A stretch of 64,000 nucleotides of DNA. Source: an uncultured Candidatus Saccharibacteria bacterium. GTDB taxonomy: Bacteria; Patescibacteriota; Minisyncoccia; Phycocordibacterales; PCTT01. The stretch lies in the NCBI GenBank assembly GCA_964566505.1, contig CAZMIM010000001.1, positions 65,140 through 129,139 on the forward strand, written 5' to 3'. The position numbers and the translations under genes are program-made. Shown piece after piece: positions 3,484 to 50,319 of this stretch; the stretch's first letter is position 1, and each line of letters opens with the position of its first letter. The notes beneath the pieces are model-generated. The model was not told where the DNA came from. It was given only the letters and a program-made list of their open reading frames with translations, and made no database searches.

Positions 3484-3510
3484 GTTTGGGAAGGTCAGAC
3501 CTTCCCAAAC
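3484..3510. repeat. REP-like palindrome, family 1 (GTTTGGGA-N11-TCCCAAAC)
   Basis: gtttgggaaggtcagaccttcccaaac; perfect palindrome. Confidence 0.9.
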
Positions 3511-3511
3511 A

Positions 3512-3550
3512 AAAACCAACGGCTCATATTCAAAATGAGCCGTTGGTTTT
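3512..3550. terminator. Hairpin family 2 (AACGGCTCA-loop-TGAGCCGTT); bidirectional terminator-like
   Basis: aaaccaacggctcatattcaaaatgagccgttggtttt. Confidence 0.7.
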
Positions 3551-3588
3551 AACTAATCGCTAGTGGCTAGTGATTAAAACCTAGCAAA

Positions 3589-4242
3589 CTATCGAGGTGT
3601 TCCTGAGAATGTTTGGAATGTTGTCATTACCTCTACAGCATCTGCTGTTTGGTATGGTACATCTTGAGTAAAATCAAACTCTCGATCTCCGTTGTCTGAG
3701 TGAAGCTTTACATAGTAAAGACTATCAGCAACGGTTCCGCGAAGAAGCGGTACATCTACATCCGCAAATTCACCTGCGTCATAAATGCGTGCCCCAAGAA
3801 TGCTTCCTGGTACTCCCTCGTTATCTTCAAATACTACTACCCATGATGTTCTATCAAGTGATAGTGCTGAGACAGCTACTGTGTCTCCAAAATTTTGATC
3901 TTCTACAGCTAGAACTACTTCTGTTTCAAGTGTTACTGGCTCTGCAGGAGTATCTGAGTGAGTATCTGCCATGTACTCATCCTCCATCATTGTGTCTGCG
4001 TCTTCAAGCGCCTCATCATTTGAACCTGCGTTTCCTGTACCAAATACAAGAAATCCGATTCCAAATCCGATAAGAACACCTAAGATTGCAACAACAATCA
4101 TTTTCTTTGTGTCATTTTGTGTATTATTTTCCATATCTTCTTCAATATTTATATCAGCGAGAGATGGTTCGTGATTGTTGTTATACTCCTCCTGAAGTGA
4201 ATCAACATCCTCATCATTTCCATCAAATGGGATAATTTCCAT
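3589..4242 (-). CDS. Hypothetical single-pass membrane protein
   Basis: One hydrophobic helix (VVAILGVLIGFGIGFLVFG); acidic termini; no recognised domain. Confidence 0.5.
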   Translation of the reverse strand: MEIIPFDGNDEDVDSLQEEYNNNHEPSLADINIEEDMENNTQNDTKKMIVVAILGVLIGFGIGFLVFGTGNAGSNDEALEDADTMMEDEYMADTHSDTPAEPVTLETEVVLAVEDQNFGDTVAVSALSLDRTSWVVVFEDNEGVPGSILGARIYDAGEFADVDVPLLRGTVADSLYYVKLHSDNGDREFDFTQDVPYQTADAVEVMTTFQTFSGTPR

Positions 4243-4358
4243 ACAAAATCTGATAAAACTTATAATTTTCCTAACAATCTGCCCTTATTATAGACCAAAG
4301 TACAAAAAAAGTGCAGAAATGCACTGTAATGATGAAAATTTCAAGAAAAGTCAATAAA

Positions 4359-47076: not shown

Positions 47077-47077
47077 T

Positions 47078-47482
47078 TTATTTGTTTCGGATTGAGGAGA
47101 TTGTAATGATTATCAAGCTGATGATTACATAAAGACCAAAAAGCCAATGAGTGAAGTGATATCTGTCTGGACCAAAGAATGCACCGCTCCATGAGTCTCC
47201 CCAACCAAGTATAAAAATATATACAAGAGGCACATGCCAAAGCGCAAATCGTGCCCAAGCTTTAAGAACAGCTAATTTTCGGGTGTATAAAATTAGTGAG
47301 ATAAATATTAAATATAAGGAAGAGTAAAATAAAACCCAACCAGGTTCATTCCACAATTTTAAACAATCTCTATTGTCTATACTGCAAATACCAAAAGAAA
47401 CTGAGTTGGATAATAAATATCCAATAATCAAAATTGCAAAAGAAAATATAAAAATATTTCTCCTTAAGGTTTGTACATTCAT
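47078..47482 (-). CDS. Hypothetical membrane protein (AT-rich gene)
   Basis: Multiple TM helices; GC ~30%. Confidence 0.4.
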   Translation of the reverse strand: MNVQTLRRNIFIFSFAILIIGYLLSNSVSFGICSIDNRDCLKLWNEPGWVLFYSSLYLIFISLILYTRKLAVLKAWARFALWHVPLVYIFILGWGDSWSGAFFGPDRYHFTHWLFGLYVIISLIIITISSIRNK

Positions 47483-47508
47483 ATGTTTATTTTAAAAGAA
47501 AAAAACTA

Positions 47509-50220
47509 CTAAATCTCATACTTATAAACATTTTCACCTATTGGGTTTTGTAATAATAATTCGCTATTTTCAAATATTTTTGTAACTGAGTTGGAAAACA
47601 TTATCGAGGCACCCGCTCGTATATATGTTTTCTCTGGGAAAATATAAATACCATCTTCGTACATAATCTGCCATAAACCAATATCAACTTCTCTGTTGCT
47701 ATTATTTGTAATCTCTATAAAACCACCCTCACCTTCTTTAAAGTCTGAAATAGTAATTTGAGCCGACGAAACTTCTATTTTTTTATATATAGATGTAGAA
47801 ATATTTTTCTTTGATACATGAAGACGAATGTTATGAATACCCTCTTGATTAAATGACGTAATAATTCTCCTTCCCTCATTAAACACACCATCTATTTCCC
47901 AAACATATCTATCAGCCGAATCTATCTCTTTTGGCTCAATAACAATCAGGTCTCCAACGTGTATGTTCTCTGGGATATTTATAGAAAATCCTATTAGAGA
48001 AGCGCCTAATGACTCTTGTTCTATTTCTATTATTTGTGCTTGTTCACCAACATTATCTTCTGTGCTATATATAATATCTTCTAGTAATTCACATGAAAGA
48101 TTTCCATCTTCGCTTGAAACACTATTCCAATCTAATAGGTTTTGTTTGTATACATCTATATTGTCATCAAGTTCTATAAAAATATCGTTGTCAGGATGTA
48201 TTTCAAAAACTACATTTAAATCTTCGTTAACAACAATATTTGGGCACGATAGAAATGTGTCCTCTGAACCACTCTCAACATCAAGTTCTAGAAAACCATC
48301 GCCTGTTCCCCATATTTCTACATCATAAAAACCTCCCTGGGGAAGAGATATGTATATTTCATCACCAAACACAAACAGTGCACTTCCTGGAATTTCTTCT
48401 TCTATTATATAAATGTCTGATCCTGGATTTTGTACGAGTCCGGTGTGGTTTCCATTCCTGTCAGAAATATCTAGAGTTACTGGAGAATGTGTGCTGACAA
48501 GTAATTTATCTACCACATCTTCTGGAGAAGGTTTTTCATTAGATATATACGATATTTCCTGGTTTACATTTTTTATTTTATTTTTTATTAATTCTTGAAT
48601 TGGAATAGCATTCATAAAATTTAAATGTCTATTCTTCTCCCCTTCAATTTTATTGAACTGAAAAAGATTAAAATAAAAAACCTCATCCAAATCGTTTGCG
48701 CTCTCTGAAATCACAGTCTTATCACCCTCTACTGTAAATTGTGGTCTCAAACCTCTTTCTGTATAAACAACACTTTTTATCGTTTCCATTCCCCAGCCTA
48801 CAATCGCTGTATTTTCTATACTTTCTGGAATTTCTAAATCATCATAATATTCATGAAATTCAAGCGCTTCATTAAAAATGACGCTGTCTAAAATTATTGG
48901 TGAATATAAATCATCAGACCCAGGAACATCTCTTGATACACCATCACCTTTCAAAAACTCTTCGAGCTCTGAAAATTTTGATATTGCAACACCCCACCTG
49001 TCCCTCCATTCATCTACGTCTTCATTTTCTGTATCAAAAATTATGGGAGGATCTATTACTTGTGAAAAATATTCTTTTGAGGGAAGAAGGTTATATCCAC
49101 CGGGAATATACTGAGAAAATGTCCGTGCATTCTCTGCACTAACAAGAAAAGTTATTTTCTCATCATATCCATGTAAAAGTGCTGGTATTGCTTTTGGAGC
49201 ACCCAAATGAGGCGTGCCTACTGTAATAAAATTGTCCACCAAATCTTCTTCCCCTTCTTTATCCAATACATCAATAATTACCTTTCCTAAAAGCCCTCCA
49301 TTTGAGTGTCCAATAATAGACACCTTGCCTGTGTCAGAGATATTTGCCATTTCTTCTATTAGAGAAATTATATTTATTGTTTCATCTCTATACTCAACTC
49401 CATTCTCTACAACATCTCGAAGATCATAGCGCCAATCATAAGGAAGTGCATGCCACTGTGAAATAACACCATCACCAACAAGCTCGTCCATGAGATCAGC
49501 ATAATCATCATATACACCGACACCAAACACCGACTCAATCATGTCTCCTACATAAATATCGTTTATACTCTCACCATATTCATCAAAAGAAAGTTCTAAT
49601 ATTTCACTACTCAAAAGTGACGGAGGCCATAGCTTGTCATTTGTATCTCTGTGATACAGCTCACTTCCTTTTATTCCAGGAAGAAAAAGCACGCTAGAAC
49701 AACACTCTTTATACTGCTCAAATGTAAATGAAAGGGTTGAATAGTTTGCCGGCTCGAAATCCGATACACCACCTGAAGAAAACCAATCCACAACATCATT
49801 TACCGACTGGCCGTCTCTCTCTGCAAGCAGTAATGTATATACACCAACATATGAACTAGAGTTTTTTAAGGGTGGTAAAGAAAATGTTTTTGAGATTACA
49901 TTTTGACCTTCTGCAAATTTCTGTAACTGGAGTGAATAATTTTCTCCTTCTACCGCCCCGCCTCCGTTAAGCGCTCCGTATTCTCCTTCAAACAATACCA
50001 GTGTAGTATCTGCGTTTGGGACCTGGTGAGGCCATGTGAATTGAAAAACCCAGGAATTATTCTCCTGGGTTAGATCTGGCCTATAAATTGTTTCTCCCTC
50101 TATAATAGTCGCTCCTCCATGACTTATGCTTTGAAATACATCAAGCTGGGCAGTGTGTGCAGTGTTGGGCAACAAAAATACCACGCATCCAAAAACAAAA
50201 ATGTATACTCCCCGCTTCAT
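47509..50220 (-). CDS. Large secreted alpha/beta-hydrolase (LCAT/PGAP1-like lipase/esterase) with a C-terminal lamin-tail domain
   Basis: Signal peptide; GxSxG nucleophile elbow IIGHSNGGLLG and a DWRYD motif typical of LCAT-like lipases; C-terminal ISDFKEGEGGFIEITNNSNREVDIGLWQI resembles LTD; GC ~30%. Confidence 0.6.
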   Translation of the reverse strand: MKRGVYIFVFGCVVFLLPNTAHTAQLDVFQSISHGGATIIEGETIYRPDLTQENNSWVFQFTWPHQVPNADTTLVLFEGEYGALNGGGAVEGENYSLQLQKFAEGQNVISKTFSLPPLKNSSSYVGVYTLLLAERDGQSVNDVVDWFSSGGVSDFEPANYSTLSFTFEQYKECCSSVLFLPGIKGSELYHRDTNDKLWPPSLLSSEILELSFDEYGESINDIYVGDMIESVFGVGVYDDYADLMDELVGDGVISQWHALPYDWRYDLRDVVENGVEYRDETINIISLIEEMANISDTGKVSIIGHSNGGLLGKVIIDVLDKEGEEDLVDNFITVGTPHLGAPKAIPALLHGYDEKITFLVSAENARTFSQYIPGGYNLLPSKEYFSQVIDPPIIFDTENEDVDEWRDRWGVAISKFSELEEFLKGDGVSRDVPGSDDLYSPIILDSVIFNEALEFHEYYDDLEIPESIENTAIVGWGMETIKSVVYTERGLRPQFTVEGDKTVISESANDLDEVFYFNLFQFNKIEGEKNRHLNFMNAIPIQELIKNKIKNVNQEISYISNEKPSPEDVVDKLLVSTHSPVTLDISDRNGNHTGLVQNPGSDIYIIEEEIPGSALFVFGDEIYISLPQGGFYDVEIWGTGDGFLELDVESGSEDTFLSCPNIVVNEDLNVVFEIHPDNDIFIELDDNIDVYKQNLLDWNSVSSEDGNLSCELLEDIIYSTEDNVGEQAQIIEIEQESLGASLIGFSINIPENIHVGDLIVIEPKEIDSADRYVWEIDGVFNEGRRIITSFNQEGIHNIRLHVSKKNISTSIYKKIEVSSAQITISDFKEGEGGFIEITNNSNREVDIGLWQIMYEDGIYIFPEKTYIRAGASIMFSNSVTKIFENSELLLQNPIGENVYKYEI

Positions 50221-50280
50221 ATATAAAGATTCCCATACCTCTAAAATCTTGCAACACTCCCTGTGGAAAACATTATTACA

Positions 50281-50319
50281 AATAGAGTTTGGGAGAGTCA
50301 GACTCTCCCAAACTCTATT
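50281..50319. repeat. REP-like palindrome, family 1, extended arms
   Basis: aatagagtttgggagagtcagactctcccaaactctatt. Confidence 0.9.

Follow-up and report, generated by a model that had tools for sequence, protein, structure and literature searches.

The 64-kb stretch of DNA analysed here (the whole of it is called the window below) carries a family of 27-nt palindromes, present as seven full copies and one truncated copy, in the spacers between genes that include those for a PD-(D/E)XK nuclease, RNase R, SMC, RNase III, a TonB_C protein and an LCAT-like lipase. The palindromes are probably repetitive extragenic palindromes (REPs) of the Patescibacteria, or candidate phyla radiation (CPR), and their likely partner is an enzyme resembling the REP-associated tyrosine transposases (RAYTs).

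The palindrome family in the window

All seven full copies are intergenic, though about 90% of the window is taken up by open reading frames (ORFs; greedy ORF call). Six of the seven lie in unidirectional or convergent spacers, a placement that agrees with published REP distributions (PMC3733652). The layout comprises one decayed doublet (47020 and 47056, with opposite centre bases) and five singletons, orientation resting on one centre base. The copies and their immediate surroundings are listed below.

Copy 1, 3484..3510, GTTTGGGAAGGTCAGACCTTCCCAAAC: flanked by minus-strand genes on both sides, a DUF7282 gene (3589-4242), whose stop is 78 bp away, and the PD-(D/E)XK nuclease gene (2641-3441), whose start follows after 42 bp; abuts a terminator hairpin at 3512-3550.
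Copy 2, 11355..11381, GTTTGGGAGAGTCAGACTCTCCCAAAC: begins immediately behind the RNase R stop codon, in a convergent spacer; abuts a bidirectional terminator at 11382-11417.
Copy 3 (deviant), 14859..14885, GTTTGGGAGAACCCGGTTCTCCCAAAC: arms kept, centre ACCCGGT; located 79 bp ahead of the SMC start codon; the ATG of a doubtful plus-strand ORF, small and basic, overlaps it.
Copy 4, 15354..15380, GTTTGGGGAAGTCAGACTTCCCCAAAC: follows the RNase III stop at a distance of 26 bp, with a hairpin (15289-15341) 12 bp away; lies with copy 3 in the 627-bp SMC/RNase III spacer.
Copy 5, 46165..46191, GTTTGGGAGAGTCAGACTCTCCCAAAC: 6 bp after a hairpin at 46125-46158 and 71 bp upstream of the TonB_C gene.
Copy 6, 47020..47046, GTTTGGGAAGGTCTGACCTTCCCAAAC: the only copy with centre T; follows the TonB_C gene and its terminator (about 46960-46992); with the truncated copy it forms the decayed doublet, between convergent genes.
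Truncated copy, 47056..47075, gagagtcagactctcccaac: GTTTGG at the 5' end and one A are missing; the centre base is A, the opposite of that in copy 6; a partner 9 nt from copy 6, in the manner of REP doublets forming hairpins (REPINs), that ends 2 bp before the stop of a minus-strand gene (47078-47482).
Copy 7, 50287..50313, GTTTGGGAGAGTCAGACTCTCCCAAAC: the palindrome reaches 41 bp in length (50280-50320); sits in the spacer between a DUF4386 gene, whose stop is 53 bp away, and the LCAT-like lipase gene, whose start is 66 bp downstream.

An exact scan of the window for GTTTGGGA-N7..15-TCCCAAAC found the arm pair at six sites (3484, 11355, 14859, 46165, 47020 and 50287), with N=11 in all of them, while none of 100 dinucleotide-preserving shuffles contained a match and zero are expected by chance. 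The 8-mer arm itself occurs 15 times in the window against two expected. When one mismatch per arm was allowed, the seventh copy at 15354 was added, and the sole extra site obtained with up to seven mismatches was the truncated copy (47050-47076). Locally this amounts to 7.5 copies in 64 kb, or one roughly every 8.5 kb.

Each of the seven full copies is a perfect 27-nt palindrome around a single odd centre base. Five distinct sequences occur among them, made up of four stem types and an A/T difference at the centre base. Folded as single-stranded DNA (ssDNA), every full copy forms a 12-bp stem closed by a loop of 3 nt (-11.4 to -11.9 kcal/mol, z about -5 to -6), and the truncated copy gives no significant fold. 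The copy at 15354 has the arms GTTTGGGG/CCCCAAAC, a compensated A:T to G:C change within the arm, and the centre ACCCGGT of the copy at 14859 stands where the other full copies have GTCWGAC. Covariation was assessed on an alignment of 15 arm-defined copies, seven from the window and eight from other contigs, in which 99.1% of the cells are paired and five of the 12 pairs have changed on both sides. The observed covariation was matched by none of 500 shuffles, and slid registers reached at most 65% pairing.

An earlier reading made from the letters of the window (the sequence-only reading) had reported seven full copies and a half copy of the palindrome, all of them intergenic, with changes of the centre always matched in both halves, and these descriptions hold. 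Its further statement that the outer arms are invariant is wrong, given the arm change at 15354 and outer bases that differ across genomes. The family is real and intergenic, and it is kept as a perfect hairpin through compensated changes.

The sequence TCAGA lies on the C-rich plus strand in five of the five singleton copies, and the doublet carries both orientations, which gives a weak hint of strand dependence (binomial, two-sided p about 0.06). No target duplication was seen at the window copies. Searched against Rfam at gathering thresholds, the whole window yields three tRNAs only, and a permissive search of 46050-47150 returned only sub-threshold chance matches.

The core in other genomes and its probable RAYT-like partner

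Most of the matches listed from a scan of genome contigs with the centre left free were unrelated palindromes, among them a Chloroflexaceae GGGAGGGTTTGGGAGGGC family, a family in a Bacteroidota metagenome-assembled genome (MAG) and chance matches. Only three contigs among the matches listed were clearly relevant, and all are patescibacterial: L031 (Kaiserbacteria), whose copy is identical to that at 47020, L054 (Saccharibacteria) and L090 (Patescibacteria UBA6033). The listed matches also include a near-identical copy with centre GTCAAAC in L011 (Rubrobacteraceae). A metagenome scan, in which the arms and GTCWGAC were fixed and the two variable stem positions were free, found five contigs, and in all five the free positions are complementary (GA/TC, AG/CT or AA/TT). 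What the genomes have in common is a core of 19-21 bp, TGGGA-RR-GTCWGAC-YY-TCCCA; the bases outside it vary by genome (TTTT/AAAA, ATGT/ACAT and others), and the GC content of the carriers ranges from 33 to 54%. Scans of viral contigs with the 27-mer pattern and with the 21-mer core gave no matches.

Inverted doublets are present in L054, L090, L122, L125 and L126, and clusters of three to four copies in L117 and L121. The L054 doublet is located between a Y-family polymerase gene and an S24/LexA-like gene. In L090 (1650-1700), the doublet lies in frame inside miaA and encodes GKVRLSQGLGKSDFPKR, making a MiaA loop 7-8 residues longer than in solved MiaA structures and leaving the ORF intact. 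Intragenic REPs are already known (PMC3733652).

The search of relatives for the palindrome, which the sequence-only reading had proposed, thus retrieved the same core from other CPR contigs, and there it also stands beside RAYT-like genes. The loci are as follows.

L118: ORF 1204-1896, with REPs of the same core at 1173-1199 and 1900-1920.
L119: ORF 5648-6346, with REPs of the same core at 5622-5648 and 6370-6398.
L123/L124: ORF 10001-10693, with REPs of the same core at 9977-9997 and 10696-10716, 3-4 bp from the start and stop codons and with opposite centre bases.
L122 (same Kaiserbacteria contig as L031): inverted doublets GCGAGAATCAGACCTTCGC and GCGAAGGTCTGATTCTCGC, exact reverse complements, i.e. 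REPINs.
L125: flanking hairpin GGAGGATCWGATCCTCC.
L126/L127: flanking hairpins CCCGAGCATCTGATTCTCGGG and CCCGAGAATCAGATGCTCGG.
L128 (16398-17197; 63% DnaX identity): a different RAYT-like gene, 218 amino acids (aa), motifs SNHFHIL and YIHLNPV, bracketed by the palindrome ATATCAAGGGCTACCCTTGATAT, with two copies of opposite centre orientation on one side and one copy on the other.

The flanked ORFs of L118 and L119 encode 230-232 aa and match Pfam PF01797 (Y1_Tnp, IS200-like) at 42 and 36.9 bits, where 23 is the cutoff. Among NCBIfam models they score highest with NF047646, REP-associated tyrosine transposase, and IS200 comes after it. The homologue family contains at least 824 proteins at E <1e-5, whose named sources are Patescibacteria, Taylorbacteria or Kaiserbacteria, and the PF01797 annotation is present on almost all of the 120 homologues listed of the 824. 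Across 55 sequences, N83-H84-x-H86 and Y144-x-x-x-K148-N149 are invariant and V147 is nearly so; from its position in the motif, Y144 is the probable catalytic tyrosine.

The AlphaFold model of the RAYT-like protein has a predicted local distance difference test score (pLDDT) of 91.7. Its top Foldseek match is the E. coli RAYT in complex with a REP hairpin, 4ER8_A (E 8.9e-6; template modelling score, TM(target), 0.54), with an extra stretch of roughly 70 aa left unaligned, and the TnpA proteins of ISDra2 and IS608 come next (2e-4). PDB searches by sequence or profile only reached ISDra2 TnpA alone (E 0.04-0.2), and 4ER8 was reached only via structure prediction.

Six further loci of the family were fetched, and every gene is flanked by hairpins on both sides. 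Across the RAYT-like lineages the hairpin stems differ and the centre RTCWGAY is kept, so that stem type co-varies with enzyme lineage; this is the pattern expected of a hairpin read by a co-evolving protein. The RAYT-like gene lies directly upstream of gap-rpiB-rpe in both Kaiserbacteria and Taylorbacteria contigs, and this shared position suggests a fixed, vertically inherited locus. RAYTs have been described as single-locus and vertically inherited (PMC5581495). Two paralogues, P0137 and P0198, are present on one 202-kb contig. The separate gene and palindrome of L128 look like a second, independent REP/RAYT pair in Paceibacteria, and REP/RAYT pairs therefore seem common in this group.

Two features of the Taylorbacteria locus L126 may be added. 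Near the RAYT locus, two 23S_rRNA_IVP (PF05635) ORFs (6378-6743 and 11871-12242) stand among housekeeping genes, and the same 20 kb contains ten TCWGA-centred hairpins of three stem types.

We therefore read the window elements as Patescibacteria/CPR REPs, the non-autonomous partners of a CPR-wide RAYT-like clade of Y1/HUH enzymes, with a probability of about 0.82. The sequence-only reading had already proposed a family of the REP type, or of the related bacterial interspersed mosaic elements (BIMEs), and this assignment gains support from the flanked Y1 HUH genes, from the NF047646 and 4ER8 matches and from the clusters and inverted doublets of L117, L121, L054 and L090.

The mechanistic homologues on which a model can be built are IS608, ISDra2 and E. 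coli TnpA-REP of 4ER8 (PMC3733652, PMC6006769, PMC5581495). By analogy with these, the RAYT-like enzyme would bind the REP as a folded ssDNA hairpin, probably while the DNA is transiently single-stranded at the replication fork, and would read the shape of the stem together with the conserved apical bases. It would then cut and rejoin single strands beside the hairpin, so that REP units could be moved or copied into new intergenic sites. We propose that both arms change together because such an enzyme would need a foldable hairpin. Effects on transcripts (hairpins at 3' ends, minus-strand termination at copies 1 and 2) are possible as secondary consequences rather than as the reason for which the family exists.

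Competing explanations, host and gene neighbourhood

The first alternative is that the copies act at the RNA level, as intrinsic terminators or 3'-end stabilisers that reuse one stem without any mobility. On the minus strand, copies 1 and 2 are picked up by a terminator scan, their 12-bp stem being followed by a T-rich tail; another terminator-like hairpin lies within about 30 bp of five of the seven copies; stem reuse does occur in the window, in the ACGGCTCA terminator family; and REPs are known to affect mRNA stability and termination (PMC3733652). However, most copies lack a T-tract on the strand transcribed into them, and copies 1, 5 and 6 lie beyond an efficient-looking terminator, so that they would seldom be transcribed. 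Moreover, the same core recurs in genomes of 33-54% GC, in different CPR classes and at both the 5' and the 3' ends of transposase genes, which convergent reuse of a stem cannot explain. We consider a purely RNA-level origin very unlikely.

Operators of a dimeric DNA-binding regulator, in the form of a regulon-wide box of the LexA or CIRCE type, could also appear as dispersed palindromes. Four of the seven copies precede a start codon by 42-80 bp (nuclease, SMC, TonB_C and lipase genes), an identical copy is found 20 bp upstream of a 32%-identical lipase homologue in L031, the L054 doublet neighbours Y-family polymerase and S24/LexA-like genes, and the GTCWGAC centre is conserved across genomes. 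Against this, three copies are located between convergent genes or in 3' regions, the L090 doublet is in frame within miaA, and L117 and L121 carry tandem clusters of three to four copies. A site read in duplex DNA needs no joint change of its arms, yet here the stems co-vary with pairing kept; they are wholly different between RAYT lineages in which the centre is kept, and a transposase gene is bracketed on both sides at no fewer than six independent loci. An operator function for the family as a whole has only the slimmest chance of being right.

These observations also bear on the proposal of the sequence-only reading that selection acts for a hairpin rather than for a protein-binding sequence. 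The hairpin has stood up; the exclusion of a protein has not, since a conserved RTCWGAY with co-varying stems fits a hairpin that is itself read by a protein, the RAYT.

The third alternative takes the gene of about 230 aa and its hairpins for an ordinary autonomous insertion sequence (IS) of the IS200/IS605 family, with the window copies as its solo ends or as miniature inverted-repeat transposable elements (MITEs). The shared Pfam family PF01797, the close structural matches to ISDra2 and IS608 TnpA, the subterminal hairpins that form the ends of such IS and the two paralogues P0137 and P0198 on one 202-kb contig would all be in keeping with it. Nevertheless, both flanks carry the same palindrome instead of distinct left and right ends, only 3-4 bp separate the hairpins from the coding sequence and other terminal sequence is lacking, and Kaiserbacteria and Taylorbacteria have the gene at one shared position, upstream of gap-rpiB-rpe. 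In both NCBIfam and the PDB, the top match is RAYT and not IS200, and the window holds 7.5 hairpins and zero transposase copies. We regard this explanation as highly improbable.

Other identities were rejected. An SOS box, suggested by the polymerase IV and LexA-like neighbours in L054 and by the REP-preceded lipases, is contradicted by the covariation, by the 3'-end and intragenic copies and by the transposase flanking. A parS or centromere site and a DNA-uptake sequence were dismissed because there are no half-sites, no copies inside the window genes and no relation to the parS sequence. The ends do not fit the GTTRRRY/RYYYAAC of an integron attC site. A CRISPR array is not compatible with window copies 0.5-31 kb apart; in the L121 cluster the repeat edges are variable and the spacers measure about 20-35 nt depending on the edges, L117 repeats its spacer too, and the sole Cas4-like match is weak and belongs to the PD-(D/E)XK nuclease.

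Several observations weigh against the assignment to REPs served by a RAYT-like enzyme. An unpaired GTAG/CGTC tag, or any conserved flanking tetranucleotide, is absent from the window copies, whose flanks read, in order, caaa, ctaa, aaat, aaaa, ctta, taga and taga on the left and aaaa, aaaa, attg, aaaa, tact, taag and tcta on the right; the tag is likewise absent at the RAYT-flanking copies in other contigs. The NF047646 cutoff of 80 bits is not reached by the L118 and L119 proteins (31.2 and 39.5 bits). With no tag and scores below this cutoff, the details of the mechanism, especially the choice of the cleavage site, may differ from those of a classical RAYT. The centre base is the sole asymmetry of the element, which makes orientation-dependent steps hard to see, and copy 3 does not have the conserved centre. 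By tblastn, no RAYT-like gene lies within the 64-kb window, so that a cognate enzyme in the source genome is assumed and its activity there is inferred. The spread of the element is uneven across hosts, L123 having only the two flanking copies in 20 kb, and neither a transposition event nor a polymorphic site between close strains was seen.

The host itself is a sparsely sampled, Paceibacteria-like CPR bacterium, as judged from the homologues of its RNase R and DnaX, which carry the names Pacebacteria, Paceibacterota, Taylorbacteria or Patescibacteria; a 283-kb NCBI contig gives a 100% self-match, and the nearest relatives after it are only 60-63% identical. Synteny with the window extends in relative L116 across RNase R, LOG, SMC, RNase III and DnaE. 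Between the RNase R and LOG genes of L116 there is a bidirectional terminator only, and no TCWGA hairpin is present in its 14.7-kb locus. Copy 2 was therefore gained or lost after the divergence from L116 and is not ancestral to both lineages.

To the left of dnaX, synteny is absent in two relatives, L128 and L129. Here the window includes an AT-rich block (about 47.05-51.4 kb, GC 0.32-0.38 compared with about 0.42) with genes for a 134-aa membrane ORF, a 903-aa LCAT-like lipase with a lamin-tail domain and a DUF4386 protein. The missing synteny and the AT-rich composition show that this region is variable. The REPs simply occupy its intergenic spacers, and the 50287 copy lies inside the AT-rich block, not at its edge. 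The lipase homologue of the Kaiserbacteria contig L031 (2233-5169, 32% identical) also has an identical REP copy 20 bp upstream, a single case. The idea that the copies bound compositionally deviant cassettes or mark insertion boundaries gains no support, as a causal tie between the REPs and the boundaries is not apparent. The TonB cassette between two REPs was considered as a RAYT-style arrangement and rejected, since its ORF encodes a genuine TonB_C protein.

Other repeated hairpins occur near the REP copies. The second hairpin family has the stem (A)ACGGCTCA/TGAGCCGT(T), preceded by an A-tract and followed by a T-tract, and its members look like bidirectional intrinsic terminators reusing one stem. 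ACGGCTCA is found 11 times in the window against 1.2 expected, and two of the hairpins abut REP copies 1 and 2. A third palindrome, AGCCCGCCYAA...TTRGGCGGGCT, is present in two copies at gene ends. The sites are the following.

3512-3550, 11382-11417, 18559-18589, 28355-28383 and about 46960-46992: second hairpin family.
31563: single arm of the second family.
15289-15341: third palindrome, after small basic ORFs.
17441-17479: third palindrome, near an L32-like gene.

Some neighbouring genes deserve separate mention. The SMC gene (12614-14779, minus strand) encodes only 721 aa, and that of L116 (5498-7699) encodes 733 aa, whereas the bacterial SMC model spans about 1180 positions; the head domains are retained, and it is the coiled coil that is much shorter. 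In the SMC/RNase III spacer, 14857-15273 holds two very basic, R/K-rich plus-strand ORFs (about 91 and 46 aa) that end at a terminator, and L116 has other genes in this spacer (148 aa, EamA, 106 aa). Between LOG and SMC, an 84-aa minus-strand ORF (12209-12463) that is GIY-YIG-like by eye could be a small mobile nuclease gene; it is absent in L116, and there LOG directly neighbours SMC. At its right end, the window has a 565-aa minus-strand ORF (62223-63920, GC 0.48-0.51) that by eye resembles a large serine recombinase and whose ORF call overlaps with the adjacent tRNA-Leu (62369-62451). An integrated element probably starts there.

Comparison with known systems

To our knowledge, nearly all work on REP/RAYT systems concerns Proteobacteria, in whose genomes they behave as long-lived, vertically inherited 'replicators'. 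The genomes of CPR hosts are roughly 1-Mb-class, compared with the large proteobacterial genomes. Since CPR genomes are among the smallest and most streamlined known, persistent repeats are unexpected in them. The system may persist in such minimal genomes through a use to the host, for example in 3'-end formation at terminators or in the reshuffling of variable gene blocks. The recognition of these elements has practical consequences as well: such palindromes break short-read assemblies of CPR MAGs and can be mistaken for regulatory sites or terminators, and the genes of roughly 230 aa are now annotated only as 'transposase' or 'hypothetical'.

The sequence-only reading had taken the family for one not yet catalogued in this lineage. 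Full-text searches found no paper on REPs or RAYTs in Patescibacteria genomes, the sole co-mention being an archaeal locus, and a large survey of HUH enzymes makes no mention of CPR taxa (PMC6006769).

The closest likeness is to the proteobacterial REP/REPIN-RAYT systems, such as BIME/TnpA-REP of E. coli and the REPINs and Group 2/3 RAYTs of Pseudomonas. Shared with them are extragenic palindromes of 20-40 bp with compensated stems, a Y1/HUH gene flanked by the same palindrome, a conserved locus in two lineages, 4ER8 as the best structural match and, apparently, the arrangement in doublets and clusters. Unlike them, the CPR REP has no unpaired GTAG/CGTC tag, whereas GTAG or CGTC defines nearly all described REP families (PMC3733652). 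It is a perfect palindrome whose conserved part is the apical RTCWGAY and not a 5' tail, and the CPR enzyme of about 230 aa, compared with about 150-165 aa in classical RAYTs and some 70 aa more than in the solved one, scores far below the NCBI RAYT cutoff. A CPR REP without the GTAG/CGTC tag used by current models of recognition and cleavage offers a natural test of those models. We suggest, tentatively, that the Patescibacteria RAYT clade could be old, largely vertical and undescribed, with tagless, symmetric REPs recognised by their apical RTCWGAY and not by a 5' GTAG guide. If true, this would represent a different way of choosing the cleavage site.

With the IS200/IS605 elements (IS608, ISDra2), the CPR system appears, from sequence and model, to share the catalytic fold, the HUH/Tyr chemistry and the recognition of ssDNA hairpins. 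Those elements have distinct ends and are multi-copy and autonomous, often with tnpB, in contrast to the identical hairpins, the fixed-locus gene and the dispersal of hairpins alone seen in CPR.

More distant parallels exist in other short repeats. The L090 doublet, in frame in a surface loop of MiaA with the ORF unbroken, resembles the Rickettsia palindromic elements (RPEs); however, RPEs are 100-150 bp long and have no known dedicated transposase, and here there is one intragenic case, with none in the window. The DNA uptake sequences (DUS) of Neisseria and the uptake signal sequences (USS) of Haemophilus, both naturally competent bacteria, are likewise short repeats found as inverted pairs at gene ends, where they act as terminators. 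They are 9-12-mers, frequent singly and within genes, whereas the CPR element occurs only as the whole palindrome and is tied to a transposase gene. The REP/RAYT system in CPR is an atypical, tagless and symmetric extension of known REP/RAYT biology.

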